DNA of 64,000 nt from Candidatus Hydrothermarchaeales archaeon (GCA_036444275.1 JAZGAD010000010.1:14271-78270), one strand, 5' to 3'; counted from the first letter of the stretch, positions 11,585 through 46,248 are shown. Translations and numbers: made by a program. Notes: generated by a model not told the origin, from the sequence alone.

Positions 11585-12628
11585 CTAAAATTCCTTCCTG
11601 TGTGGTTCAACGATTACCTTGAGGGATTCCTTTGCATCGGCGACGAGTTGAAATCCCAAGCCGGTTTCTTCCAAGTTTAATCGATGCGTAATCATGTCGT
11701 GCACATTCACATCTCTCGCGCTGATCATTTCTAGAGCTTTTGCTAGATCTTGAGGGCTAGCCCCATATGAAGTCATTAATGTAACCTCGTTGCGCCAAAG
11801 TTCATTTACAGGCACAGGCAGGTCAACCCCTGGCTTTGTCGGTGCGAAGAATATAACAGTACCTCCGCGATCCACAGATTGCAAAGCCTGGGCGAAGGTG
11901 TTAGTTGCTCCAGTGCAGACGATTACACGATCAGCAAGTGTGTTTTCATTGACTTGGCGCAAGCGGGTAGGCACATCCTCCTCTGCATGTATAACGACAT
12001 CTGCTCCAAATCGCCGTGCCGCATTCAAACGATACTCATTGATGTCCGTGGCAATTACTCTCTCTGCTCCCTTTACTCTGGCCAATTGCACATGAAGCAG
12101 TCCGGAGATGCCACTGCCTAAGACGAGTACACTATGGCCCTTCTTTACATTCCCTAGTCTTTGCCCCCGAAGTACGCAGGCCAGAGGCTCGATAAACGTA
12201 CCATCTTCATAAGATACCTCGTCGGGTAACAGATACACACCCCTCTCCACGTTTATTCTCGGGACACGAATGTATTCTGCGAAGCCACCTGGATCGAAGT
12301 TCGTTTTGTGTAAGGTTTCACATGCAGTATGGTGCCCGCTCAAACAGTAGCGGCATTCGTTGCAAGGTACGTGGTGGGAAACGAAAACCCTATCACCTGT
12401 TTTATAACGCTTCACGCCATCGCCGACCTCAACTATTTCGCCTGTTACCTCGTGGCCTAGTACAAGGGGCGCCTTTTTGACCCGGTACCACTCCATAACG
12501 TCGCTGCCGCAGATGCCACTCGCCATGACCTTAAGTAATATCTCTCCAGGATTGATCTTGGGCGTTGACATCTCCTCCAGGCGCACATCTTGGTTATTGT
12601 AATACATTGCTACGCGCATGATGCCCAA
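11585..12628 (-). CDS. Zn-dependent alcohol/polyol dehydrogenase (MDR family)
   Basis: CGSD, GHE, CxxCxxC..C, GSGISG. Confidence 0.9.
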   Translation of the reverse strand: MGIMRVAMYYNNQDVRLEEMSTPKINPGEILLKVMASGICGSDVMEWYRVKKAPLVLGHEVTGEIVEVGDGVKRYKTGDRVFVSHHVPCNECRYCLSGHHTACETLHKTNFDPGGFAEYIRVPRINVERGVYLLPDEVSYEDGTFIEPLACVLRGQRLGNVKKGHSVLVLGSGISGLLHVQLARVKGAERVIATDINEYRLNAARRFGADVVIHAEEDVPTRLRQVNENTLADRVIVCTGATNTFAQALQSVDRGGTVIFFAPTKPGVDLPVPVNELWRNEVTLMTSYGASPQDLAKALEMISARDVNVHDMITHRLNLEETGLGFQLVADAKESLKVIVEPHRKEF

Positions 12629-32491: not shown

Positions 32492-33509
32492 ATGGATACG
32501 GCTGGGAGGATAACCGTCAGCTTCCCATATAATCCTTCCTACATTACAAAGATAAAAAGCATAAAAGGTCACAGGTGGCATCCTGAAGAAAAATACTGGC
32601 GTGTGCCATACTCTGAGCTTGAAAACCTCTTATCTGTCTTTGATGGCGAGAAGGCTGATATCGACTCCGCTCTCTATTTCGAGCCCCTGAGAAAAGAGCT
32701 TGCATCGAGGAAGTACAGCCGGAGAACGATGAAGATGTATCTGCAGTACAATGAGGATTTCTTGAGGTTTGCAAGGAAAACTCCTTACAAGATTTCCAAT
32801 AGCGACGTGAGGGATTATCTGTATCACTTGGCGGAGGAGAGGGATGCATCTGCCTCTACCCTGAATATTGCTATAAATGCGTTGAAGTTCTACTATGGTG
32901 AGATCTTAAAGCGGGGGTTTGCTTATGGGATTAAGAGGCCTAAGAAGGATAAGAAAATGCCCGTTGTATTAAGTCCGGAGGAAGTTTCCAAGATTTTATC
33001 TTCACTTTCAAACATCAAGCATAAAGCCATTCTTATGCTTATGTATTCTGCTGGATTAAGAGTTGGTGAAGTTGTGAAGTTGAGGGTTGAGGATATAGAT
33101 ACTGGAAGAAAGTTAATTCATATCCGTGGTGGGAAAGGAAGGAAAGATCGCTATACTATACTTTCAGATGTTGCATTGGAGACCCTCAAAGTATATATCA
33201 ACGCCTGCAATCCAGAAAATTGGCTTTTTCCTGGGGGGAAAGGATAGAGGGCATGTTACCACAAGAACTGTGCAAAGGATATTTGAAGATGCCGTCAGAG
33301 AGGTCGGTGTTGGCAAAGACGTTAGCGTTCATTCTTTGAGACATAGCTTTGCAACACATCTATTAGAAAGCGGCGTAGATTTGAGGTATATTCAGGAATT
33401 GTTAGGGCACAAAAGCAGTAAAACGACAGAGATATACACTCATGTGAGCAACAAGTCTTGGAGCAGAATAAAAAGCCCTCTGGATCTAATTCAAAGAGGT
33501 GGGACATGA
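32492..33509 (+). pseudogene. Integron-integrase-like tyrosine recombinase split by a 1-nt frameshift
   Basis: SAM-like N-domain, [34 protein letters not shown]; break at the G6 run 33233-33238. Confidence 0.9.
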
Positions 33510-33536: not shown

Positions 33537-33606
33537 ATATGCGCAATGCAGATATAATTCTAAATAGGGATGATATACGCAATGCGTATATGAACGAGTT
33601 AGGCGA
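33537..33606 (+). other. attI-like site
   Basis: Two related palindromes 36 bp apart followed by GTTAGGC core at 33598-33604. Confidence 0.7.
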
Positions 33607-33654
33607 AATTTTTAAATCGCCTTTATAAGAACTTAAAAAAGGAATGTGAAATAG

Positions 33655-35055
33655 TTGAATATGAAAGCTTTAATACTTGCCGCTGGAGACGGTGGCAGAT
33701 TGGGCAACTTAACTAAAAATAAACCCAAGCCCCTGATTAAACTTTTGGGATTAACTTTGATCGAAAGAGTAATATTAACTGCAAAACAAGCAGGCATTAA
33801 AGAATTCGTGATAGTTTTTGGTTATCTGGGTGACAAAATAAAAGCAAAATTGGGAACTGGAGATAGGTATGGAGTAGAAATAAACTATATCGAAAATAAT
33901 GACTGCCAAAAAGAAAATGGGATCTCTGTATTAAAGGCCAAAGGATTGTTAAATGAAAACTTCATCCTGTTAATGTCAGACCATATCTTTGATAATCGTA
34001 TTCTGAAAGAACTTATCGATTATGATACAAAAAGTTCAGTTGTTTTAGCTATTGATAGAAGAAAATCTCTACCAGGAGACACAAAGGTTCTGGAGAAGGA
34101 AGGAAGAATTGTTGATATCGGTAAAAATATAGAAGAATCAAACTGCATAGATACGGGTATCTTCTTGTGCTCACCAAAAATATTTTCTCATATTGAAGAA
34201 GCAGTAAAAGAAGGTAAAACTGAGCTTGCACATGATATTGCTAAAGCTGTTAAGAACAGAGATGCAGAAATATTCGACATCACGCAAATTAACAGCTATA
34301 TCCCGAGCATGCGGAAGGAGATTAAAGCTTTCTGGATAGATATTGATACAAAGGAGGATTTAATCAAAGCAAAAAAGCTTTTAATTGAGAATGCCTGTAA
34401 AGGACGAAATGACCTGCTTGCAACCTATGTGAATAAGCCAATAGAAAATTTTATTGTAAGCAGATTGGCGAACACGCAGATTACACCAAACCAGGTTACT
34501 ATACTAACAAACATAGTTGCTTATACATCCACATTTTTATTTCTCGAAGGATATCTATTGTTTGCTTCCATTCTCACCTTTATCGTTTCATTTATGGACG
34601 GTGTGGACGGAAAACTTTCAAGAGTGAAAATAGCCTTTTCAAATATTGGGAAAATGGAGTACGCCTTCGATTTTCTTTATGAGCATTCATGGTATATCGC
34701 CTTAGCCATCTATCTATCAAAGGACTATGGACTATCAGCGATTTTACTGTGCACATTCATACTCCTGTTTGATGGTTTTTCTCATTTTTGCAGACAGGCG
34801 TTTGGGAAGGCAATAAAGGACCGCCCATTAACAGATTATGGACGAATTGAACGGCTATTCAGAAAATTTGATGGTAGGAAGAACAGTTATATAATTTTTA
34901 TCTTAATAGGTGTTTTGCTAAATGCACCTTTCTGGTCATTAGTTGCAATATCTGTATGGTCATTGGTCAGTGCTATATTTTATTCTTCAAGGGCGATTTT
35001 GCATTTATATCGAGCCGATAAATCAACTCAGGGACCATATGGGAGCAAAAGATGA
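33655..35055 (+). CDS. Bifunctional inositol-1-phosphate cytidylyltransferase / CDP-alcohol phosphotransferase (IPCT/DIPPS-like)
   Basis: LAAGDGGR..KP NTP-transferase domain fused to a TPNQVT..DGVDGKLSR membrane domain. Confidence 0.85.
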   Translation: MNMKALILAAGDGGRLGNLTKNKPKPLIKLLGLTLIERVILTAKQAGIKEFVIVFGYLGDKIKAKLGTGDRYGVEINYIENNDCQKENGISVLKAKGLLNENFILLMSDHIFDNRILKELIDYDTKSSVVLAIDRRKSLPGDTKVLEKEGRIVDIGKNIEESNCIDTGIFLCSPKIFSHIEEAVKEGKTELAHDIAKAVKNRDAEIFDITQINSYIPSMRKEIKAFWIDIDTKEDLIKAKKLLIENACKGRNDLLATYVNKPIENFIVSRLANTQITPNQVTILTNIVAYTSTFLFLEGYLLFASILTFIVSFMDGVDGKLSRVKIAFSNIGKMEYAFDFLYEHSWYIALAIYLSKDYGLSAILLCTFILLFDGFSHFCRQAFGKAIKDRPLTDYGRIERLFRKFDGRKNSYIIFILIGVLLNAPFWSLVAISVWSLVSAIFYSSRAILHLYRADKSTQGPYGSKR

Positions 35056-35132
35056 AGATAAGAATGATGTGGCTTGGGAAGGTCGTCAACGGACCTTCCA
35101 TCCACCTGAAATTAGTAGGGAGGGCTTGAACA

Positions 35133-36257
35133 ATGAAGATCGCTTACGTATCAACCTATCTCCCCAAACAGTGTGGGATAGCCACCTACACGGATTATCT
35201 CATTCACGGTCTCAGAGAGGTGGATCCGGCATTGGAGATTAAGATCATTGCCGAACAAGGAGCATCTCCTATCAAACAAGATAAACTTGAAGTGATCCCC
35301 TCCTGGGATAGAAACGAGGATTATGTAGAACCTATCATCTCACGCACAAAGGGTGCAGATGTAATCCACATTCAGCACGAATACGGCATATACAAATTTG
35401 ATGATAGATTACCATTATTACTCCAGGGATTGGACCCAGATGCCCGGAAGGTGATAACCATCCATTGCGTGAGACCAGCTCAGTTCTCCGAAAGAGATGC
35501 TGTAGATGAGAATTTTGCAGCAAAAATCGCTCAACTTGCCGATCAGGTCATCGTACACCTTGAGTCGCAAAAAGCAATCCTGACACGACTTGGAATACCA
35601 TCAGGAAAGATTCACATTATTCCCCATGGAACAGTGCTTAGTGATGAGGATAAAGAGGCTTCACGGAAGAGGCTCGGACTGCCCAAGGACGCAAAGATAC
35701 TTCTCATGTTCGGGTTTGTCAAGAAACACAAGTGTTTACACATCGTTCTTGAGGCCCTCGTTGAGATATTGGAGAAATTCAAAGATATATATCTATTTGT
35801 GGCCGGAGGTCTTGCTCCAATAGCCTCACAGAAGGACAGGGACTATGCAGAATATGTGGGCAAGAGGATAGCGGAACTGGGGCTTCAGAAGAACGTCATC
35901 TACCCAAACAGGTTCTTTCCCAACGAAGATGTGCCATATCTGTTGGGGGCATCTGACATTATCCTGTTTCCTTACTATGAGGAGGACCGCTCTGCCTCGG
36001 GCTCATTTCACCTGGCCATTGGTGCGAAAAAACCAGTTATTGCTTCGAGGATACCCAAGTTTGAAGAACTGAGAAATATCTGCGATGAACTTCTTGTCCT
36101 TCCGTATAACTCTTCGGGAATTGCAAAAGTAGTCATTCGTCTTTTTGAAGACTCAAAATTTCGGCAGTATGTAGTCAATCGCACCGAAGAATACAGAAAT
36201 CTTACCTCCTGGCAAACCGTAGCGCACCAACACTTGAAATTGTATAAGGGAGTTTGA
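35133..36257 (+). CDS. GT4-like glycosyltransferase
   Basis: CGIATY, HIQHEYG, FGF..KK, PY...SASG. Confidence 0.85.
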   Translation: MKIAYVSTYLPKQCGIATYTDYLIHGLREVDPALEIKIIAEQGASPIKQDKLEVIPSWDRNEDYVEPIISRTKGADVIHIQHEYGIYKFDDRLPLLLQGLDPDARKVITIHCVRPAQFSERDAVDENFAAKIAQLADQVIVHLESQKAILTRLGIPSGKIHIIPHGTVLSDEDKEASRKRLGLPKDAKILLMFGFVKKHKCLHIVLEALVEILEKFKDIYLFVAGGLAPIASQKDRDYAEYVGKRIAELGLQKNVIYPNRFFPNEDVPYLLGASDIILFPYYEEDRSASGSFHLAIGAKKPVIASRIPKFEELRNICDELLVLPYNSSGIAKVVIRLFEDSKFRQYVVNRTEEYRNLTSWQTVAHQHLKLYKGV

Positions 36258-36258
36258 G

Positions 36259-37299
36259 ATGAAGATAGGAATGATGACCGCTTGGAACCAAGATGTAGGA
36301 CCTTCTATTCATGCCGAGCTGATCGGCAGAGAATGGGTGAAGATGGGTCATGAGCTTAGAATTTTTTCCTTCCTTAAGTCAGATTTTCATGGCACAGCCA
36401 TTGTTGGTCAGGATGAGGAGTATGTGCTCCGATGTTTTACTACATCTACGGCAGAAAGACCATTTTTGGATGCTCGTCCCTTCGTAGAATTCCATCCCGA
36501 TATTTTCATTACCCAAGATCTTGGGACGTTGCCAATGGATGCTCTCGCAAAGATTTTCCACCTTATAAAAAAAGAAGCAAAGACGATAACCGTGATCCAC
36601 GATCGAATGCTTTCATCAAATCCATCTTTTTATCAATTTGAATGGGATGCGATTATTTGTAGCGATAAAAGGTACGTAGAATTTCTTAAAGAGGCTTATC
36701 CAGAGGAAAAAATCTATGTAATACCCCATCCATACAATAAGTGGAGAGCCGGGGATAAGATTCGGGCAAGAAAGAAATTAGATCTGCCACTCGATAAGAA
36801 GATTATCCTGAACTTTGGTCAAAGAGTAAAGGATTTCAAAGAAACACTTCCTGCGATTTCCGAACTTCAGTCCAACTATCCGATTCTTGTTTTGGTAGTT
36901 ACCAGAGAAGAAATAGAAGAACTCAGAAGAGAAACAACTTTACCAATTGAGATAAGGGAAGAGAGCCCATGTATAGAAAGGGTTTATGAGTATTTACACG
37001 CATCAGATGCCATGGTACTTCACCGTAAATCTATTGAGGGGATTGTCTATTCAAGCACCACTTATCAGTGCTTAGGATCAGGTTGTTCCGTCGTTGCGCT
37101 AAACTCAAACTTCTTCCAGCCATTTGGTGTGGAAGTCTTAAAATATGATGACTTAGCGGGCTTAAAGGAGTGCCTAATCGATATATTTAAAGAAGGAAAA
37201 AGATATAAAACAGCAAAATTATTAGCGGAAAGGGTGGTAAAAAGAAATACTCCACAAGAGATAGCAACTAAATTCATTAAACTTTTTGAATCGCTGTGA
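36259..37299 (+). CDS. GT-B glycosyltransferase (paralogue of 38056-39099)
   Basis: MKIGMMTAWN..HAE..W.KMGH N-terminus shared with the paralogue. Confidence 0.7.
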   Translation: MKIGMMTAWNQDVGPSIHAELIGREWVKMGHELRIFSFLKSDFHGTAIVGQDEEYVLRCFTTSTAERPFLDARPFVEFHPDIFITQDLGTLPMDALAKIFHLIKKEAKTITVIHDRMLSSNPSFYQFEWDAIICSDKRYVEFLKEAYPEEKIYVIPHPYNKWRAGDKIRARKKLDLPLDKKIILNFGQRVKDFKETLPAISELQSNYPILVLVVTREEIEELRRETTLPIEIREESPCIERVYEYLHASDAMVLHRKSIEGIVYSSTTYQCLGSGCSVVALNSNFFQPFGVEVLKYDDLAGLKECLIDIFKEGKRYKTAKLLAERVVKRNTPQEIATKFIKLFESL

Positions 37300-37307
37300 T
37301 GGGTAAA

Positions 37308-37424
37308 ATGAAATCTAAAACTTTTGTTGGTAGAGAGAATAAATTAAAGCTACTGGAACACTATTTTGAAGAAACCATCAAAAACAAAAAAAGGCATTGT
37401 TATTTTGCTTACATGAGGAAATAG
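37308..37424 (+). pseudogene. Archaeal ATPase N-terminal fragment
   Basis: MKSKTFVGRENKLKLL.. (FVGRE motif) then truncated. Confidence 0.4.
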
Positions 37425-37427
37425 GTA

Positions 37428-37772
37428 TTGGCAAACAGACGCTTAACACCCTGGGGCAGCTGGCAGGTTCTTGCTGAAGGCCGAGAATATAAGGTAAAAC
37501 TGATTAAAGTGAAGCCAGGGCACCGCTTTAGCCTCCAGTTGCATAATCGTAGAGATGAGCACTGGATGGTTGTTTCAGGTCAAGCAAGAGTAGAGATTGG
37601 AGACAAAACAGTTAAAGCTAAACCCGGAAAATACATATTCATTCCTAAAAAGACGAAGCACCGGCTGCAAAATCCGGGAAAGAGTCGTCTCGTGGTAATT
37701 GAGGTTCAAAGGGGTAAATATCTAGAAGAGGACGATATTGTTCGCCAAGAAGATAATTATGGAAGGTCATGA
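37428..37772 (+). CDS. Type II mannose-6-phosphate isomerase cupin domain
   Basis: PWGSW, SLQLH..RDEHW, HRLQN, EVQRG.YLEEDDIVR. Confidence 0.9.
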   Translation: MANRRLTPWGSWQVLAEGREYKVKLIKVKPGHRFSLQLHNRRDEHWMVVSGQARVEIGDKTVKAKPGKYIFIPKKTKHRLQNPGKSRLVVIEVQRGKYLEEDDIVRQEDNYGRS

Positions 37773-38032
37773 AACTTAATTCAGAGATTTTTAGAGAGCA
37801 CGATATAAGGGGAGTGGTTGATAAGGACTTGGATCCGGAGGTGGTGGAAGAAATTGGTAGGGCCTTTGGGGCTTATATTGGGAAGGGTAAGGTGGCGGTA
37901 GGACAGAGGGGATATTGAGATAATGAGCAAAGATTTAAAACTTAGCAACTAGAGTTAGAAGAGATTAATGATATCTTCATCGAAAGGCTTAAGAAGTATC
38001 CTCAAATGGACATTAAGCCGTTTAGAGGATAA
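37769..38032 (+). pseudogene. Phosphomannomutase/phosphoglucomutase remnant (internal deletion)
   Basis: MKLNSEIFREHDIRGVVDKDL..IGRAFG..VAVG then stop at 37918; a possible C-terminal remnant follows. Confidence 0.75.
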
Positions 38033-38055
38033 TTATTTTGGAAGGAGGCTAGAGG

Positions 38056-39099
38056 ATGAGAATTGCTATGATGAGTGCTTGGAACACAGATAGTGGAGTA
38101 GCTGTACATGCAGAACCATTGGGCAAAGCCTGGATAAAGATGGGACATAAGTTAACTGTATTTACTTTCATCAAGGATGACTTCCATGGGGAGGGGTTTA
38201 CCGGCGAAGATGAGGAGTATGTAGTCAGATGTTTTGGCACTCAAGAGCATACCAACTTCTTAGACCCCCGGCCTATCCTCACCACGGACTTTGATATCTT
38301 CGTAGTTCAGGATTTAAGGATACTTCCAGTAGAAAAATTAGCCAAAGTATTTAGCCTGATTAAACAGCGGGCCATGACAATACATATAGTTCATGAAAAT
38401 AAATTACCTGATGATGCCTGGTTTTATCAATTTGACTGGGACAAGGTAGTCTATTTTGATCAGAGGCAGGAATTCCTAAAAGAGATATACCCTGACGCTA
38501 AACTTATCCCTTTTCCTTGTTATGAACTAAGAAGGCGTGATAAGCTTGAGGCAAAAAAGAGGTTAGAGCTCCCCCTGGATAAGAAAATCATCTACTCTTT
38601 TGGCCAACGCGGCTATCATTCCTATCTTCGAAACTTACCTGATGAGATTAAAGATAAGGCAGTGCTTCTACATGTTGTCTCCAAAGAATACCAGATGCTT
38701 GAAGAGGAATCTCCTCCCGATTGGATGATTATTAGAAGAGAGGATGTTTTATCCCGCGAGAAATTTAATGACTATCTCTTTGCCTCGGATGCGGCTATTT
38801 TTCATAAGTTCCAGAGCCGTTATCATGCCGTTGTTTCCTCTACGGTCTTTCAGGCATTAGGTTGTGGTTGCCCAATCTTAGTTCCCCGGCAATCGGATTT
38901 CTTTCATCCTATGCAGAATGAGGTCATACGTTATGGAGATACTCCCGACTTAAATAGGAAGCTGCTTGAATTATTTGGAGATGAACAGACATCTCAAACA
39001 GTCCAAGACGCAGCAGAAGGGTTTGTGTCAATGAATTCACCAGAAAAAATTGCCAAAAGGTATATCGGGCTATTTACTGAGGTCTTAAGAGCAAGATAA
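38056..39099 (+). CDS. GT-B glycosyltransferase (paralogue of 36259-37299)
   Basis: MRIAMMSAWNTDSG..HAE; VSST.FQALG.GCP. Confidence 0.7.
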   Translation: MRIAMMSAWNTDSGVAVHAEPLGKAWIKMGHKLTVFTFIKDDFHGEGFTGEDEEYVVRCFGTQEHTNFLDPRPILTTDFDIFVVQDLRILPVEKLAKVFSLIKQRAMTIHIVHENKLPDDAWFYQFDWDKVVYFDQRQEFLKEIYPDAKLIPFPCYELRRRDKLEAKKRLELPLDKKIIYSFGQRGYHSYLRNLPDEIKDKAVLLHVVSKEYQMLEEESPPDWMIIRREDVLSREKFNDYLFASDAAIFHKFQSRYHAVVSSTVFQALGCGCPILVPRQSDFFHPMQNEVIRYGDTPDLNRKLLELFGDEQTSQTVQDAAEGFVSMNSPEKIAKRYIGLFTEVLRAR

Positions 39100-39134
39100 G
39101 ATGTGCAAGAAAAATTTTATCATCGAGCCATTTT

Positions 39135-39407
39135 GTGGATTATCCAAACAACCCAATTTTAGCTCCGGCAAAAGGTTTCACCTCACAAGGAATATATAAC
39201 CCTACAGTGATTAAAGAAGGAAAAAAATTCTTTATGCTATTCAGGGCTGAGGCAGAAGATGAGTTGACGGGAAGGATAGGGCTTGCTAAAAGTAGTGATG
39301 GCATCCAATTTAGCTTGCACCCCGAACCAGTAATAGTGCCTTCTGCGGATTTCGATAAGTTCGGCTGTGAAGACCCCCGGGTGGTGAGATTTAAAGATAC
39401 TAAGTAA
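39135..39407 (+). pseudogene. Truncated GH130-like glycosidase/phosphorylase
   Basis: NPIL..YNP..RIGLA.S.DG..GCEDPRV then stop. Confidence 0.75.
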
Positions 39408-39410
39408 AAT

Positions 39411-39661
39411 GTGGGAAGAATCAAGATTGCTATTATAGGAGTAGGCAACTGCGCCAGTTCTCTGGTGCAAGGTTTATGGTTCTATAAAGATTCATCAGAA
39501 GAAAAAGTTATCGGCTTAATGCACTACGATGTTGGTGGGTACAAGGTATGGGATTTGAGGTAGCGGCTGCCTTTGATATCGATAAGCGAAAGGTTGGCAA
39601 GCCCTTGAATGAGGCGATATTTGCCAGGCCGAACTGCAGGAGAATTTATAAAATTATTTAA
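39411..39661 (+). pseudogene. ino1: Inositol-3-phosphate synthase fragment, frameshifted
   Basis: [18 protein letters not shown]..., frameshift near 39553, then [25 protein letters not shown]. Confidence 0.85.
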
Positions 39662-39685
39662 CAAGTTGTTATAAGGGGTAATGTA

Positions 39686-40855
39686 ATGAACACTTTGGAA
39701 GAATTAGGAGATGGCAAGGTTATCGAAATCGAATCAGGAGCGACCATTTTTAAACTGGAGTCCGATGAAAAAAACCCTATTGTCAGACCCCAAGACCTCG
39801 GGCTCACCTGGAATGAGAATGGCGAATCGAAGATTGGGGCAGTTTTCAACGGTGGGGCTGAATTTTTCGAGAATAAGGTTATTCTTTTGCCAAGGTGTCA
39901 TAGAGATTACCGAAAGGGCGAATTCTTTGACGAAAAGTTAGGCATTGAGAGGACCTGCCTGGAAAACTACATTTCCGAGGTTTGGCCTTTGGTGAGCGAG
40001 GATGGCGTCCACTTCACCAGATTCCATAACGTGGTAATCCGGGGCGATGGCACCGACCATCAGGACTTTACCTACGGAATAGAGGACATCCGAATCGTTA
40101 AGTACGGCCGGAGATACCTGCTGATCGGGTGTGGGAAGATAAAACCTCCGTTTAAAGGCGGCAATGCGGATCGAATTGCCATTTACACAACCAAAGATTT
40201 TGTGAAGATTAACTATCAGGGCATAGTGGACTCCTTTGACTCGCGCAATGCGGTTCCCTTCTCCGAGCCGGTAAATGGACAACACTGGATACTCCTGCGT
40301 TTTCATACTAATATTCACATAGATTTTCTTGAAGCCGGCATAAATCAATTGCTGAATCCTTCCCAGCACACAGAACAGTGGGATGAAATCTATGAGCGAC
40401 AGAGCCAGAATCTCCTTTTAGAAGCTGGGCACTACCCGCACGAAAAGCAGAAAATCGGCCCGGGCCCCCAGGTGCTCAGAACCGATAGGGGTTGGTTGCT
40501 CATCTACCATGCTGTTGGTGAGATAGAATATAATATCTGCAAAGCCTACGGGTTGACGGAAAAAATTGAAAGAGGATACTCCATCTGCGCTGCCCTTTTG
40601 GACTTAGACGATCCACGAAAGGTGCTTTGTCGAACCAGAAATCCAATCTATATTCCTTCAACCCCTTACGAATTATATGGTAACGATCAATATCCAGTGG
40701 ATGTGTCTGCAGTCGTTTTTCCCATGGGTGCTATTGTTCGAAAAGAAAAACTGATTCTCTATGCCGGAGCTGGCGATAAATACATCATCCTTTTGAGCTG
40801 CGATCTTGATAACTTAGTTAATTATTTATGGGAGTATTGCAAGTACATTGCATAG
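39686..40855 (+). CDS. GH130-like glycosidase/mannoside phosphorylase
   Basis: AVFNGGA, GIEDIRI, KIGPG, WLLIYH, VVFP.G, YAGAGD. Confidence 0.8.
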   Translation: MNTLEELGDGKVIEIESGATIFKLESDEKNPIVRPQDLGLTWNENGESKIGAVFNGGAEFFENKVILLPRCHRDYRKGEFFDEKLGIERTCLENYISEVWPLVSEDGVHFTRFHNVVIRGDGTDHQDFTYGIEDIRIVKYGRRYLLIGCGKIKPPFKGGNADRIAIYTTKDFVKINYQGIVDSFDSRNAVPFSEPVNGQHWILLRFHTNIHIDFLEAGINQLLNPSQHTEQWDEIYERQSQNLLLEAGHYPHEKQKIGPGPQVLRTDRGWLLIYHAVGEIEYNICKAYGLTEKIERGYSICAALLDLDDPRKVLCRTRNPIYIPSTPYELYGNDQYPVDVSAVVFPMGAIVRKEKLILYAGAGDKYIILLSCDLDNLVNYLWEYCKYIA

Positions 40856-40879
40856 GAACTACCATTGACTTGGCACATC

Positions 40880-40949
40880 GCCTAACAACGGCTAAAAGGC
40901 TCCGCCCAAATTTGCTCCGCTAACTTCTTTTATCCGCAATACGTTAGGT
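40880..40949 (+). repeat. attC-like site 1
   Basis: GCCTAAC-A-ACGGCTAAAAG ... ACTT-CTTTTATCCGC-AATAC-GTTAGGT. Confidence 0.8.
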
Positions 40950-40997
40950 GAAATGCCTAAGCCCGCTTTGATGGTAAAATTAAAATAAGAATATGTC

Positions 40998-41318
40998 ATG
41001 GGTGACTGTATGAAAGGCAAAAACACTCTTACAGAAATAATGGACATCTTTAAAAAATATGAAAAGGAACTGAACAGAAGGTACGGGATCAAAAAGATTG
41101 GGATATTTGGCTCGTACCTAAGAAGCGAAGCTGGAGAGGAGAGCGATCTAGATATACTTGTAGAATTTGAACAAGACGTAGATATAGGGCTTTTAAAATT
41201 TGTAGAGATAGAGAACTATCTGAGTGACCTTCTTGGTGTTAAAGTGGATTTGGTGGAAAAATCTGCATTAAAACCGAGGATAGGACGGCGTATATTGAAA
41301 GAGGTTGTTTACGCATGA
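40998..41318 (+). CDS. MntA-like nucleotidyltransferase antitoxin (cassette 2)
   Basis: [16 protein letters not shown] (GSX10DXD). Confidence 0.9.
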
Positions 41319-41659
41319 AGAGAGAGGTTGGAGACTATATTCAAGATGTCATCGACGCTACGAATAAAGGCATGAGATTTGTTGAGGGTGTGGAATATGA
41401 AGATTTCATTCATGATGATAAAACCGTATTTGCTGTGATAAGAGCTATAGAGGTTATTGGTGAAGCAGTCAAAAATATACCTGAAGATGTAAAAATGGAG
41501 TATCCCGAAATTCCCTGGAGAGATATTGCCGGAATGAGAGATAAGCTTATTCATGCTTATTTTGGAGTTAGCATCAAAAGAGTATGGAAAGCTATAAAAG
41601 AAGAAATTCCTCCATTAAAACCTGTATTTGAAAAAATGCTTAAGGACTTAGAAAAATGA
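41315..41659 (+). CDS. HepT/DUF86 toxin (cassette 2)
   Basis: [16 protein letters not shown] (RX4HXY); ATGA coupling to the antitoxin. Confidence 0.9.
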
Positions 41660-41735
41660 GGTCTATAATATTCGGTAGGCTTGGGTACTCTGCGGATTTG
41701 CATTGCAAATCCTTGCCCTCGCTATCGCTCGGGTC

Positions 41736-41886
41736 GCCTAACAGGCGGGTATGCGGTTCGAAATGATGAAAAGTGGTCTCACCCAGATTCCTTTGACAAC
41801 GGTTATATTCAGCTTTCACATTGCTCTCACCTGATGAAATCGGGATGCTCGCAGTCGGCACTTCGCATACCCGCGAAACGTTAGAC
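41736..41886 (+). repeat. attC-like site 2
   Basis: GCCTAAC-AG-GCGGGTATGCG ... ACTT-CGCATACCCGC-GAAAC-GTTAGAC; perfect 11-bp arms. Confidence 0.85.
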
Positions 41887-41930
41887 GCAATAAATTTCAA
41901 TAGTTTGATTTTATATGGAGATATACAATC

Positions 41931-42365
41931 ATGAAAAAGTTTCGAGATGTCGATGAGATAAAAGTAAAATTAGAAGAAGTGAATGCCTTATTTGAAAAAG
42001 GTGATCTTGCATGTTTTTTGTATCTATCAAGTTATATTGAAGATCGCCTGAAACGTAATCTAATGGTTCATTGTTTGTCAGAAGACAGATATTCTAAAGA
42101 GATTGAACATTATATTTTCAACTTAAATCTCTATAATTTAATTGAAATATCCAACTTATTCGGATTAATTACTAAAGAAACTTATACGGATTTGGAAATT
42201 TATAGAAAGTTTAGAAATGAATTGTTTCATGATGCAATTTTCAATGAAGCAATTGATAGAGAGTATGAGAAATATTATTCATTAGGTTGTAAAATAATAT
42301 GTGAACTTCATGACACGGGTGTCGAAATATGCGACGCAATAACCAAAAAAGTAGACATTTCCTAA
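41931..42365 (+). CDS. Putative HEPN-domain protein (cassette 3)
   Basis: Helical protein with IE..L and RNELFH (RX4H) motif; GGAG RBS; AT-rich. Confidence 0.65.
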   Translation: MKKFRDVDEIKVKLEEVNALFEKGDLACFLYLSSYIEDRLKRNLMVHCLSEDRYSKEIEHYIFNLNLYNLIEISNLFGLITKETYTDLEIYRKFRNELFHDAIFNEAIDREYEKYYSLGCKIICELHDTGVEICDAITKKVDIS

Positions 42366-42375
42366 AATTTACATC

Positions 42376-42459
42376 GCCTAACAGAGCGTATCTGGTTCGC
42401 TATCGCTCACCTAAATCTCTCCCGTTGCCTGAACTTCAGATACGCTCGGAACGTTATAT
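42376..42459 (+). repeat. attC-like site 3
   Basis: GCCTAAC-A-GAGCGTATCTG ... ACTT-CAGATACGCTC-GGAAC-GTTATAT; perfect 11-bp arms. Confidence 0.85.
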
Positions 42460-42515
42460 GCAATTTCAAAGAAGTTACTATTCCCCAATTTGAGTTATTA
42501 AAGGAGGTCTAACTT

Positions 42516-43427
42516 ATGTCAATGAAGTCTAAAAGAAAAGACCCCACACCTAAACAGAAAGAAAAATTGCTCTCTATGAATGCGGGAGTTTGCTGTGTAT
42601 GCAAAACAAGAGGGCAAGGTGTTAATTTTCATCATATTGACGGTGACAATACCAACACTGTCATTGAAAACTTAGCTGTTCTTTGCATCAAGGATCATGA
42701 TGCATATCATAGACCTCAGGTTTATACAGAGATGAAACATTTAGAGCTTGGAGCTGAAAAGATATTAAAATGCAAGCTTGAATGGGAATCATTTATAAAA
42801 GCAGCACAAAAAGAAAGTCCCAAAGTGCTAGCTGTAATAAATATTTACGGGACTGAAGAAAGCATACATTCTATGAGATTAATTTTCCAGACAATTGAAT
42901 CAAAAATAATTTTTGAACGACTATATCATCTACTTACAGGATCACCTAAAAGTTGGATAGATTCTGCAATTGATGAAGTTCGCTGGCTTGGATCAAATAT
43001 TCCACTTTCAATAGTAGATAAACCACTTCCAATTGAATATTGCCCTTGCTGTGATAAATCTTTAGCGAATGTAATTGATAGTAATGTTGCAAAGAGGATA
43101 ACGGCAAGCAATTGGGAACAAAATTCTATCTGTTCTATTTATATCAATCCTTCACAACCTTCTTTGGCAATTATACTATTGTATGAAAAAGAAGTTCTTC
43201 TTACCGGATCACTTCATAAATGTGGTGAATGCCTACATTTCATTTGTGATAATTTCGAGGAAAGAGTTCCAATTAAAAAATCGCCCAGCGTGAGAACTCA
43301 GGCAACTAGAATTTTATCTAAAGTTTTAAGTGAGTGGCACCCAGCCCAAATACTTATTGGAACAGGAGATGAAGATAATCCTGAGATCATTGACAATTTG
43401 AACCTATCACGAATATGGGAGAATTAA
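42516..43427 (+). CDS. HNH endonuclease-domain protein with unknown C-terminal region (cassette 4)
   Basis: CCVC..HHIDG..N....NLAVLC..DH..H; AGGAGG RBS. Confidence 0.75.
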   Translation: MSMKSKRKDPTPKQKEKLLSMNAGVCCVCKTRGQGVNFHHIDGDNTNTVIENLAVLCIKDHDAYHRPQVYTEMKHLELGAEKILKCKLEWESFIKAAQKESPKVLAVINIYGTEESIHSMRLIFQTIESKIIFERLYHLLTGSPKSWIDSAIDEVRWLGSNIPLSIVDKPLPIEYCPCCDKSLANVIDSNVAKRITASNWEQNSICSIYINPSQPSLAIILLYEKEVLLTGSLHKCGECLHFICDNFEERVPIKKSPSVRTQATRILSKVLSEWHPAQILIGTGDEDNPEIIDNLNLSRIWEN

Positions 43428-43465
43428 GATTATTACTCAAATAACTCAAATTATGATGAAACGGC

Positions 43466-43528
43466 GTATAACAGAGCATACCTGGCTTCGTGCCTTCGGC
43501 GGACTTCAGATACACGCAACCGTTAAGT
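43466..43528 (+). repeat. attC-like site 4 (degenerate arms)
   Basis: GTATAAC-A-GAGCATACCTG ... ACTT-CAGATACACGC-AACC-GTTAAGT. Confidence 0.75.
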
Positions 43529-43569
43529 GAAAAAGCCCAAAGTTTATTGAATTAAAATGAGGCAAATCC

Positions 43570-44094
43570 GTGAAAGATAATAAACTTCAACAGCTCAAAG
43601 TTGTAATCTCCCTTCTTGAGAAGTATAATAAAATCGAAGAAAAATTAAAAGAGCTCAAAATCGTTCGAACGAGAAAGGTTATCTCAGAAGTTGGCGAGTG
43701 GTATGTCTCTATTCTTTTTAATTGTAAAATAAATACTAACCCGTCTGAAAAAGGATTCGATTGTATTGACCCTGAGACTGGGAAGAAGATTGAAATAAAG
43801 ACTATCAGAAAATCAGAAAGTAATCCTATTGGCTATAGGTTATCTAAGGATAAAGTCGAGCGGCAAATTTTTGATGAACTTATTATTTTGAGGTTGGGAG
43901 ATAATTTTCGGATAAGACAATTGTTTAAGTTGGATAGAGATGATATTTCGGAGGAGAATTTTTCCCTTCTTAGCAGTGCGAAATATAATTTGAGTTGGAA
44001 TTCCTTAAAAAAGGGAAACTTCGAAGTTACTCATGAAAATGCTTTACAAAGAGGGTTAGATGATATAGAAGTATTTAGAATGCTAATGGAATAA
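43570..44094 (+). CDS. PD-(D/E)XK nuclease-like protein (cassette 5)
   Basis: SEVGE..KGFDC...IEIK motif. Confidence 0.7.
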   Translation: MKDNKLQQLKVVISLLEKYNKIEEKLKELKIVRTRKVISEVGEWYVSILFNCKINTNPSEKGFDCIDPETGKKIEIKTIRKSESNPIGYRLSKDKVERQIFDELIILRLGDNFRIRQLFKLDRDDISEENFSLLSSAKYNLSWNSLKKGNFEVTHENALQRGLDDIEVFRMLME

Positions 44095-44107
44095 TATGGG
44101 CTTCTTC

Positions 44108-44183
44108 GCCTAACAGTGTGTTTGCGAAGTGCCGAAGGCATTTGGGTGAGCATGATGCACCGCAAACACACGAACCATTACGC
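44108..44183 (+). repeat. attC-like site 5 (core GTT changed to ATT)
   Basis: GCCTAAC-A-GTGTGTTTGCG ... CGCAAACACAC-GAACC-ATTACGC; perfect 11-bp arms. Confidence 0.8.
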
Positions 44184-44248
44184 GACATTGCGAAATATAA
44201 GAATTTGCGTCTTTTAGATATTCAAAATGGAAATTTCAGGCGCAGTTA

Positions 44249-44337: not shown

Positions 44338-45048
44338 ATGAGAAAGATACTCCCACTAGCTGTCATCCTTATCTTGATCCTAGCGGTCGGCTACTTTTAC
44401 TTGTCTCAGAGACCGAGAGAAGAACTCGTAGGCTCCGAGGCAATAGGAGAAAACGCCCGAATTCTCACCATTAAGACCGAAGTCAAGGGCGTAGAGCACA
44501 CGAGGCATGACATAGAGTACACCAGAGAAGAACGGACTTTCAGGAACTATTTCGACTCCAAACTGAGGCCTGCATTGGCCTGGATAAAAGGAAACGCACC
44601 TGAAGATGCTGTCTTCCTCTGTTGGTGGGACTATGGGCATATGATACGTGGCTATACCGAGAGAGACGCAGTGGTATATAGTCCTTCTAAGGGCATAATG
44701 GAGACTGTATCCAGCGGCAAGTGGGACACCTCCGCTAGTGGAGACTTCTCTACAGAGGAAAGGATAAGAGAAGTAGCTCTAGCCCTAACAGCAAGAGATC
44801 CAAAAGAAACTCTTGATATAATGAAAAAATACAGAGCTAACTATGTCTTTATAACCGCAGAGGATTCTGCGAAGAGCTTTGCCATCTTCTCTAGCTTGGG
44901 CTACGACCCCTCTGAGTATCTAGTGGATTGGAAGCCTACAGAGAAAGCCATGGAAACTATGCTCTTCAAGATGCTCGGGCACGAGCGGGTAGAGGGCTTG
45001 AACCTGCTGTATTCAGATGAATTCGTGAAAATCTATGGGCTAGAATGA
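44338..45048 (+). CDS. Stand-alone STT3/AglB C-terminal-domain protein
   Basis: One N-terminal TM helix; ALAWIK.N..VFLCWWDYGHMI motif; YRANYVFI. Confidence 0.75.
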   Translation: MRKILPLAVILILILAVGYFYLSQRPREELVGSEAIGENARILTIKTEVKGVEHTRHDIEYTREERTFRNYFDSKLRPALAWIKGNAPEDAVFLCWWDYGHMIRGYTERDAVVYSPSKGIMETVSSGKWDTSASGDFSTEERIREVALALTARDPKETLDIMKKYRANYVFITAEDSAKSFAIFSSLGYDPSEYLVDWKPTEKAMETMLFKMLGHERVEGLNLLYSDEFVKIYGLE

Positions 45049-45450
45049 AAGGGCCTACTACTATTTCTGGCTTTGGAACTTACCTCGAAGTCTGCTGCAA
45101 TCTTTTCCTCAAAGGCCTTTCTATCGCTCCTAGCAGTAACTCCTTCCGTCTCTAAGAGCCCATACATTCTCTACAGAGAGACCCCGCATTATGGTATAGC
45201 CCTTCGTTGCTCCAGAAGGCTGCATCCTGATGTCTAAACAGGAAGTGTCGATATCGCCACTCACATCTAGTTTCTCAAGGCTCGCAGGAAGGCGGGTTAG
45301 AGTCTCTCTTCTTGTGCTTTTGGTGGGATGATCGAAAATCTCGAGCTCGGTTTTTGTGCGGGAAACCTAATATGTTAGAATAACTATTACAGTTCTCATG
45401 ATCATGCAATATGTACGTGTACGGGAAAATAAAAACGTTGGTGTGTTGCG

Positions 45451-46248
45451 ATGCGGTTAGCATCGATTGTCATGATAGCCCTTCTCAGATACGAGACAAC
45501 GAAAAGGTGCATAGAGAGCATTTTTGAGAGAACCATGGCGCCCTTTGAGCTGATAGTCGTCGCTGTGGACTGTGAGAAGAAGATGAGAGAATTTTTTGAG
45601 GACCTTCAGAGGAAAAAGAAGAACCTAAAGGTCATCCATATAAAAAGCGGTCTGGGAACAACCGGCTCCAGAAATGTCGGCATACGAGCCTGTTCTGGGG
45701 ATTATATAGTGTTTATGGACAACGATGCTCTTGTGAGCGAGGGATGGTTGGGAAAGTTGGAGAGGGTGGCTGAAAGCTCTCCGGATATCGGCCTTGTGGG
45801 CCCTAAAATCCTCAGGAAGAGCGGTGAGATTTATTATTGCAGCAAGTATATGAACGCGAAAGTGGAAGGGGGAAAAGTGGTGGAGATGGGCCTCAGCAAG
45901 ACAGAAGTCTATAGCGGTGATGACCCCGAGGTCAACAGACAGGAGGAGGTGGTGTGGTATCCCACCACAACCCTGCTCGTAAAAAGGGAGGTGATAGAAA
46001 AAGTTGGGGGTTTTGATGAAGCATTTTTTCTTGTGGATGAGGACAAGGACCTCTGTCTGAGCGCGAGAGAAGCTGGCTACAAAACAATATATGCGCCATA
46101 TGCAGAAGTTGTTCACCTTCACGACTATCGTCTGGTGGATAGGCACAACACCTACCACAAGAACTTCAGGCTCAGGATGGACCTGATAGAAAAGGACAAC
46201 AAAAATTTTGAGAAGAAGTGGGGCCTGAGACTTGTTGACATATGGTAG
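45451..46248 (+). CDS. GT2-family glycosyltransferase
   Basis: RNVG, FMDND, GGFDE, EDKDLC, H motif. Confidence 0.9.
   Translation: MRLASIVMIALLRYETTKRCIESIFERTMAPFELIVVAVDCEKKMREFFEDLQRKKKNLKVIHIKSGLGTTGSRNVGIRACSGDYIVFMDNDALVSEGWLGKLERVAESSPDIGLVGPKILRKSGEIYYCSKYMNAKVEGGKVVEMGLSKTEVYSGDDPEVNRQEEVVWYPTTTLLVKREVIEKVGGFDEAFFLVDEDKDLCLSAREAGYKTIYAPYAEVVHLHDYRLVDRHNTYHKNFRLRMDLIEKDNKNFEKKWGLRLVDIW

Follow-up and report, generated by a model that had tools for sequence, protein, structure and literature searches.

The DNA examined here, referred to as the window, is a stretch of 64,000 nucleotides (nt) from Candidatus Hydrothermarchaeales archaeon (GCA_036444275.1, JAZGAD010000010.1:14271-78270), and its region at 32.4-44.2 kb is an integron-like (integron-type) cassette array, in which an attI junction and five cassettes, each closed by an attC site, lie downstream of a tyrosine recombinase gene. 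The two ends of a cassette pair with each other and covary, this pairing is absent between the ends that meet in the integrated array, and the crossover lies at or next to the G|TT of R', the GTTRRRY box that closes an attC. It is likely that the cassette ends are the two halves of one attC hairpin base that is split on insertion and is longer than the textbook R box of 7 base pairs (bp). With a recombination cut separating the G of R' from its TT, the R' arm of each attC would be divided on integration: its outer half (TTRRRY and the adjoining bases) would stand at the left end of the cassette to which it belongs, and the remainder of the attC at the right end. In the excised circle the joined ends would re-form the base of the hairpin, the folded single strand presumably being the substrate. 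Counted from the G of R', the proposed arm would consist of GTTA at positions 1-4, cassette-specific and covarying bases at 5-7, a conserved G-A at 8-9, a near-invariant non-pair at 11 and, in about half of the cassettes, a cassette-specific stem at 12-15 which may extend to 19 and exceptionally to 26.

A first-pass annotation, made from the sequence of the window, had proposed that the ends of every cassette are complementary, and this is the case for cassettes 3-5. Its count for cassette 5, 14 of 17 (43522-43538 with 44098-44114), was correct and becomes 15 of 18 with one more base, and the counts of 13 of 16 in cassette 4 and 14 of 18 in cassette 3 could be reproduced as well (stems in Table 1). 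The R'' variant of cassette 4, GTATAAC, also follows its own upstream GTTATAT (6 of 7) and not the downstream GTTAAGT (4 of 7), as had been claimed. Cassettes 1 and 2, in contrast, have no cassette-specific extension. The 9/9 reported for cassette 1 was rightly counted but reflects the family consensus only, since TCGCCTAAC is shared by four of the five R'' flanks, all of which match the left end of this cassette at 9/9. Cassette 2 (40943-41742), which the annotation left out, has a cognate R box of 6/7 and 4 of 11 pairs beyond it.

For comparison between cassettes, pairing beyond the R box was scored over the 11 positions from 8 to 18. Cognate ends of cassettes 1-5 reach 4, 4, 8, 7 and 10 of 11, against 2-5 for the non-cognate pairs of the window with the single exception of 7 for the left end of cassette 2 and the flank of attC1. 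In cassette 3 seven contiguous pairs start at position 12, the 10 of 11 in cassette 5 was reached by none of 342 non-cognate pairs, and when the five window ends were permuted, 2 of 120 arrangements reached the observed sum. The match of 13/18 between the attC1 flank and the cassette 2 left end was considered as a possible unrecombined site and rejected; it was ascribed to a sub-family motif, (A/G)TGCC, and 3 of 30 integrated pairs reach 7 of 11.

The same scoring was applied to 37 cassettes bounded by two successive attCs or by an attI and an attC: five from the window, one from another contig of the same genome (C13), 18 from genomes of relatives and 13 from five bacterial or unplaced genomes (Gemmatimonadaceae, Flavobacterium, Patescibacteria, Peregrinibacteria and Thermodesulfobacterium). 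In the per-position profile, calculated, like the energies below, over 32 cassettes, positions 1-4 are nearly constantly GTTA, and positions 5-7 covary, with a match frequency of 0.66-0.84 in cognate against 0.33-0.37 in non-cognate pairs. Position 8 is G in 31 of 32 on both sides, position 9 is mostly A, and position 10 matches at 0.47 against 0.26. Position 11 is a fixed non-pair (0.06 in cognate and non-cognate pairs alike), after which pairing resumes at 12-15 (0.66-0.78 against 0.23-0.35), declines at 16-19 (0.31-0.47 against 0.23-0.29) and is at background from position 20 onward. Since positions 12-15 have no base consensus, the agreement between the two ends is covariation and not a shared motif; these positions also lie, on both sides, outside the covariance model with which the attC sites were found.

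All of positions 12-15 are paired in 18 of the 37 cognate combinations and in 13 of 1332 non-cognate ones, and at least 7 of 11 positions beyond the R box are paired in 17 of 37 and 35 of 1332, respectively. The observed sum was reached in none of 100000 permutations, with the same outcome when shuffling was confined within arrays (25 cassettes). The longest arms, with 23/26 and 24/26 positions paired, belong to two cassettes of Patescibacteria, of which one measures 4 kb. The annotation had expected a stem far beyond the 7-bp R box in general, and this holds for cassettes 3-5 and for the 18 of 37 overall, but not for the other 19. It had also suggested comparing the folding energies of cognate and shuffled end pairings. 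For whole-hairpin circle junctions in the window alone this gave no separation, since every attC finds a perfect consensus partner in the attI-side end. Outer-stem energies over the 32 cassettes (bottom strand), however, do separate, the cognate mean being -14.1 against -8.3 kcal/mol with none of 20000 permutations as low. Non-cognate ends thus score as well as cognate ones neither in the match counts nor in the outer-stem energies.

At position 11 the left end carries A in 35 of the 37 cassettes, and when it is set against the reverse complement of the R'' flank the combination is A/G in 24, A/C in 9 and a match in 2. The typical non-pair is hence a left-end A facing a C of the R'' flank, which reads as A.C on the top strand and as T.G on the bottom. 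The left-end base lies outside the search model and is therefore unbiased, whereas the R''-side base lies inside it and its conservation is partly selected. This mismatch may bias folding to the bottom strand. The suggestion that most mismatches are transitions, compatible with G-T pairing on one strand, stands for this fixed position only. In cassettes 3-5 transitions do predominate (7 of 10 mismatches), but over the 23 cassettes with a cognate R box there are, outside position 11, 41 transitions and 73 transversions, and transitions are not enriched. Five of the seven would give G.T on the bottom strand and two on the top strand, and the idea of transitions confined to one strand was rejected.

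The placement of the crossover at or next to G|TT, also proposed in the annotation, is borne out by the covariation of the R box, by attI-bounded cassettes, by the flanks of integrated sites and by one contig joint. In cassettes with a base other than A at position 4 (GTTCAAC, GTTGTGT), that base agrees with the R'' of the same cassette and not with the attC upstream. The independent attI motif, CGTATATGAACGAG|TTA, bounds five first cassettes, and in all five the cognate R box is complete at 7/7. Between the flanks on either side of an integrated attC, 3.67 of 11 positions pair (30 attCs), compared to 3.83 for unrelated pairs, which is background; as had been predicted, the full stem exists only where both ends of the same cassette are brought together, and the variable part to the right of GTTA therefore belongs to the downstream cassette. 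Of the public sequencing runs, the one best covering this stretch (X1), which may come from the source sample, contains one contig, at a depth of 3.2, in which 41880 is joined to 44178, TTA fitting either side; the contig represents a population variant that lacks cassettes 3-5, with the cut at G|TTA. The invariance of GTTA means that the cut is placed within G-T-T-A and no finer, and these comparisons fit a crossover at G|TT as in classical integrons.

The window attI and its copy on contig C13 are alike up to GTTA and unlike past it. On C13 the same 17-mer stands ahead of a solitary cassette whose ends pair at 15/17 and whose R'' is the variant CAGATAAC. This locus (about 11940-12542, minus strand) has no recombinase gene adjacent to the attI copy, and its single 501-nt cassette is followed by an antitoxin/toxin-like gene pair. 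With 0-1 mismatch, the attI motif was found at 13 places in the genomes of relatives and at 2 in this genome, and in one relative (G004) it lies about 110 nt past an intact recombinase homologue and is followed by two cassettes.

Other joints in the run contigs were also inspected. None of those that go back along the sequence falls at a cassette boundary, and the frequent joints of 40921-40924 to 42432 and of 43500 to 42431 were rejected, being other attC sites that match halves of the window ones. In runs X2-X9 only about 5% of the words of the stretch are present. A contig of run X6 has an apparent joint of 41894 to 42363, from the left to the right extension of cassette 3, with just 21 letters on one side; it could be a mini-cassette without an open reading frame (ORF) and was not used as evidence.

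The five attC sites of the window are 63-151 nt long, attC2 being the 151-nt one, and are imperfect palindromes that start with RYYYAAC (R'') and end with GTTRRRY. They have the boxes, the paired L''/L' stem and the variable loop of integron attCs. RNAalifold applied to the five predicts 19 pairs, with an L stem of 12 pairs besides the R stem, and 6 of the 19 show compensatory changes. From these five sites the covariance model (R1) was built on which all attC detection rests, and which favours like sites; it spans 4 nt before R'' and 2 nt after R'. The model scores attC1 at 71.8 bits and attC2 at 65.4 bits, has matches elsewhere in the same genome (contigs C13, C27 and C60) and found similar sites in 24 of 101 genomes, this one counted. 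Minimum-free-energy folds of 47 attCs (the five of the window and 42 related) mostly have a one-sided bulge of 3-5 nt between the R and L stems on the R'-L' arm, followed by 10-11 unbroken pairs, and single-base extrahelical bulges on the '' arm are few among these predicted folds of sites picked with the five-site model. Extrahelical single bases are typical of bacterial attC sites, and in IntI systems extrahelical bases of the folded bottom strand direct which strand is used. Such a one-sided bulge with few single-base bulges would fit a recognition mode unlike that of IntI.

Two further loci of attC-like sites were noted in the same genome. Contig C28 (2880-3620) carries a small cassette with a GTTAGGCGAAA start and an attC-like site at its end, and a direct repeat of about 65 nt, AT-rich (...GGGATTAAATATTTTT...), occurs ahead of the cassette and again within this site. 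On contig C12 (31791-32410) a HicB/HicA-like pair lies between two short attC-like sites of about 46 nt.

The recombinase is IntI/XerA-like and, as judged from profile and alignment comparisons, lacks the IntI-specific additional domain. TIGR02249 aligns to the window recombinase over profile positions 4-178 and 233-313 only, skipping 179-232 (144+106 bits, cut-off 265), and the intact homologue P0002 reaches 235 bits, below this cut-off, compared to 509 bits for IntI1; the XerA-type model NF040815, with a cut-off of 220, is passed by P0002 with 245 bits. About 45 residues are missing from the recombinase in pairwise alignment with IntI1, and in an alignment of 12 sequences IntI1 has 31 + 10 extra residues in the insertion region that all eleven relatives lack, so the I2 helix region near patch III was not found. 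The window protein has an N-terminal extension of 60 amino acids (aa), FPYNPxxIxKIKxIxGxxWH... The family (about 345 aa) comprises 4932 proteins at E <= 1e-10 out of 5924 candidates, with 60-77% identity and archaeal as well as bacterial metagenome sources. In a scan with the family alignment, which returned 80 loci, attC matches were found beside the gene in several, and the relatives in Flavobacterium, Gemmatimonadaceae, Spirochaetota and Patescibacteria loci adjoin attC arrays and are also without the additional domain. In two of the four near-complete relatives searched, G011 (99% complete) and G012 (93%), both with attC matches, no match to the recombinase gene was found, and it is probably not a housekeeping gene in this order.

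Several points weigh against the two ends being halves of one long hairpin base. The distal stem is missing in 19 of the 37 cassettes, including cassettes 1 and 2 of the window, and when gapped or offset complementarity was sought in these 19 by local alignment, 18 gave background scores. With about half of the cassettes lacking it, the distal stem is therefore not obligatory for recombination. Cassettes of one array are non-independent samples, and the conservation at positions 8-9 on both sides and 10-11 of the R'' flank is partly selected by the search because the covariance model spans these positions. The strand bias is small: the bottom strand has the greater stability in 20 of 32 cassettes, with a mean advantage of 0.87 kcal/mol. 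The recombinase gene of the window is interrupted near 33235, where a run of G contains a frameshift, and no circle junctions were seen in the public-run contigs, where rare circles would not show.

Among the 19 cassettes without a distal stem, seven have an R box of 5/7 or less and may be mis-bounded, and the other 12 look well bounded. Many of these 12 have conserved flanks before R'', ending in ...CGGGTC or ...GCACTC. Conserved sequence right before R'' was also noted at 41718-41735 of the window and in relatives, with ...TCGCTxTCGCTCGGGTC and ...GGTGCTAACGCACTC types that occur in many attCs without the distal stem.

One alternative, though an improbable one, is that the distal stem is a neutral relic: a long inverted repeat would have arisen at the birth of the cassette or attC, for example from a longer palindrome or by snap-back synthesis, and would now be decaying, with only the R box under selection. 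A signal that is bimodal and fades with distance, from 0.66-0.78 at 12-15 to 0.31-0.47 at 16-19 and background from 20, agrees with decay, as do the 19 of 37 cassettes without the stem and the function of class 1 cassettes with 7-12 bp. However, the same layout of G-A at 8-9, a non-pair at 11 and renewed pairing is found in archaeal and bacterial arrays with unrelated distal sequences, a fixed mismatch between maintained pairs is unexpected under neutral decay, and the two Patescibacteria cassettes have retained almost the whole of their 26 positions.

It is rather more improbable that the Xer-like recombinase binds the ends as inverted repeats in duplex form, as with transposon ends or dif modules, and that no hairpin is formed. 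The protein itself speaks for such recognition, as it is without the IntI additional domain linked to single-strand recombination and its family passed the XerA-type model and not TIGR02249; acquisition of the I2 helix is described, in the accessible part of PMC7790495, as the step to single-strand recombination. Against it, positions 12-15 covary without a consensus, and a protein reading each duplex end apart would not demand covariation; nor do the flanks of the integrated site pair. The full attC palindrome, the covarying L stem and the one-sided 3-5-nt bulge in most of the 47 folds point the same way, since these asymmetries matter only in a folded strand. In addition, IntI1 recombined archaeal attCs in Escherichia coli according to the accessible part of PMC9668308, though perhaps not attCs of the window type. 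Finally, chance or a shared family motif, by which all attC flanks of an array would look alike, is true for cassette 1 and partly for (A/G)TGCC at positions 11-15, which gives the 7/11 of the attC1 flank with the cassette 2 left end, but after the non-cognate counts and permutations above it is rejected for cassettes 3-5 and for the whole set of 37, and is left with hardly any probability.

If the ends are indeed two halves of a split hairpin base, the long arm could serve as a recombinase-binding arm, or as a clamp that would make the hairpin more stable in the free circle than at the integrated site and so favour capture over loss. A wider proposal, which we put forward only tentatively and consider rather doubtful, is that these arrays form a separate and widespread integron lineage, found in Archaea and at least in Gemmatimonadota, Bacteroidota, Patescibacteria and Spirochaetota, whose recombinase never gained or has lost the I2/additional domain. 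In such a lineage the one-sided bulge and an R arm of 15 bp or more would replace the extrahelical bases of the L box, with an invariant T.G at +11 of the bottom strand (A.C on the top), and the cassette ends would encode both the choice of strand and a preference for capture rather than excision, the arm being complete only in the circle.

The array occupies a low-GC island (GC 0.33-0.44 compared to about 0.48 in the flanks), and flank-level GC is regained from about 44400. The integrase gene has the same orientation as the cassettes, with the attI just downstream of it (Table 1); the attI is predicted from its motif beside the recombinase gene. The genes of cassette 1 encode an NTP-transferase/CDP-alcohol transferase, two GT1/GT4 glycosyltransferases, a mannose-6-P isomerase cupin, an unknown protein and a GH130 protein. 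The final base of attC5 at 44177 is A instead of G, as it is also in a relative locus (L121), and this A may lock the terminal cassette. The sequence beyond it is probably the original right half of the attI. Host genes just past the array (44338-46248) are related to glycosylation too, with an AglB-like fragment and a GT2 gene. Taken with the sugar and glycosyltransferase cluster of cassette 1, these genes suggest that the integron may feed surface-glycan variation.

Table 1. Positions of the recombinase gene, junctions and cassettes in the window
Feature	Position	Strand	Content	Terminal attC	End stem
Tyrosine recombinase gene	32492..33509	+	two overlapping frames, 32492-33247 and 33126-33509; Pfam PF13495 and PF00589		
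attI-type junction (predicted), CGTATATGAACGAG|TTA	33585..33601	+	G at 33598; about 90 nt past the recombinase stop codon		
Cassette 1	33599..40943	+	7.3 kb, six genes (Pfam)	attC1, 40880-40949	
Cassette 2	40944..41880	+	MNT nucleotidyltransferase and HepT toxin-antitoxin pair; PF01909, PF01934	attC2, 41736-41886	
Cassette 3	41881..42453	+	144-aa ORF, no family match	attC3, 42376-42459	41880-41897 with 42365-42382
Cassette 4	42454..43522	+	303-aa ORF, weak HNH match	attC4, 43466-43528	42453-42468 with 43457-43472
Cassette 5	43523..44177	+	DUF6998 ORF, PF22522	attC5, 44108-44183	43522-43539 with 44097-44114
Distal array end, TTACGCGACATTGCG...	44178..44195	+	left-end consensus G-A-C-A-T at +8 to +12		

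If the extension holds, the attC sites of this lineage are longer than the boundaries used by detection tools, and positions 5-7 and 12-15 provide an internal check that pairs the two ends of a cassette, by which mis-bounded, fused or rearranged cassettes become recognisable from sequence alone. By being whole only in the free circle, the arm would also offer a simple and testable reason for capture over loss. Integron finders would file attC arrays beside recombinases without the IntI-specific domain as integrase-less clusters, and such arrays bear on the published view of domain acquisition as the step to single-strand recombination.

Cognate end pairing is a textbook signature of integron cassettes, and the core of the finding is in this sense ordinary. 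The relation between the ends of a cassette reportedly served Hall, Brookes and Stokes in 1991 as the classical argument for a crossover at G|TT. The cassettes of the window resemble those of bacterial integrons in their RYYYAAC/GTTRRRY boxes and L''/L' stem, in being arranged in one orientation with mostly a single gene each, and in having left ends complementary to their own attC and not to the upstream one, with pairing that exceeds the 7-nt boxes. In the accessible part of Bouvier et al. (2009, PMC2727003) self-pairing past these boxes is given as 9-11 consecutive nt in most cassettes. For our own control, 10 class 1 cassettes from three plasmid loci were bounded by hand from gene positions and box motifs, after an energy-based attC scanner had returned mostly false positives on these loci. 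Consecutive pairing from the G was 4 (12 with two transitions), 7, 8, 8, 8, 8, 9, 12, 12 and 12, and in these 10 cassettes there was no pairing beyond 12 and no mismatch at +11. In the arrays described here, by contrast, pairing resumes past a fixed non-pair at +11 and continues to 15-19 bp, or 26 in two cassettes. In two class 1 integrons on plasmids (L139, L140) we also observed an attI1-like AACAAAG|TT junction, and not an attC, in front of the aadA1 cassette that follows blaOXA-10, an arrangement that fits the delta-attI-type cassettes named in the accessible text of PMC12901181.

Further differences from bacterial integrons are found in the predicted folds, where in most cases a one-sided bulge of 3-5 nt separates the R and L stems and single-base bulges of the L stem are few, and in the recombinase, which lacks the additional domain and is co-oriented with the cassettes. 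Like XerA, this recombinase passes NF040815 and has an Xer-like length across the IntI insertion region, but its sites are attC palindromes of 63-151 nt instead of the 28-bp dif, and its gene, which lies next to an attI and cassettes in a low-GC island, is probably accessory. The archaeal integrons of Ghaly et al. (2022, PMC9668308) have, in the accessible part of that account, a putative attI that directly follows intI and has the canonical insertion point, and the window shares with them the archaeal host, the attC arrays, the attI beside the integrase and toxin-antitoxin cassettes. As far as the same text goes, only proteins matching the IntI-specific domain profile count there as IntI, by which the window array would be a CALIN (an attC cluster lacking an integrase), and it makes no mention of an extended R arm. 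In the open-access literature searched we found no description of a longer R arm, of the +11 mismatch or of attC arrays with integrases lacking the additional domain. The principle of cognate R'/R'' pairing is thus already known, and the lineage of the window departs from it by degree and by a single fixed feature, without being of a different kind. What looks new is the distal stem, which reaches about 15-19 bp and up to 26, together with the near-invariant +11 mismatch and a recombinase that lacks the IntI domain.

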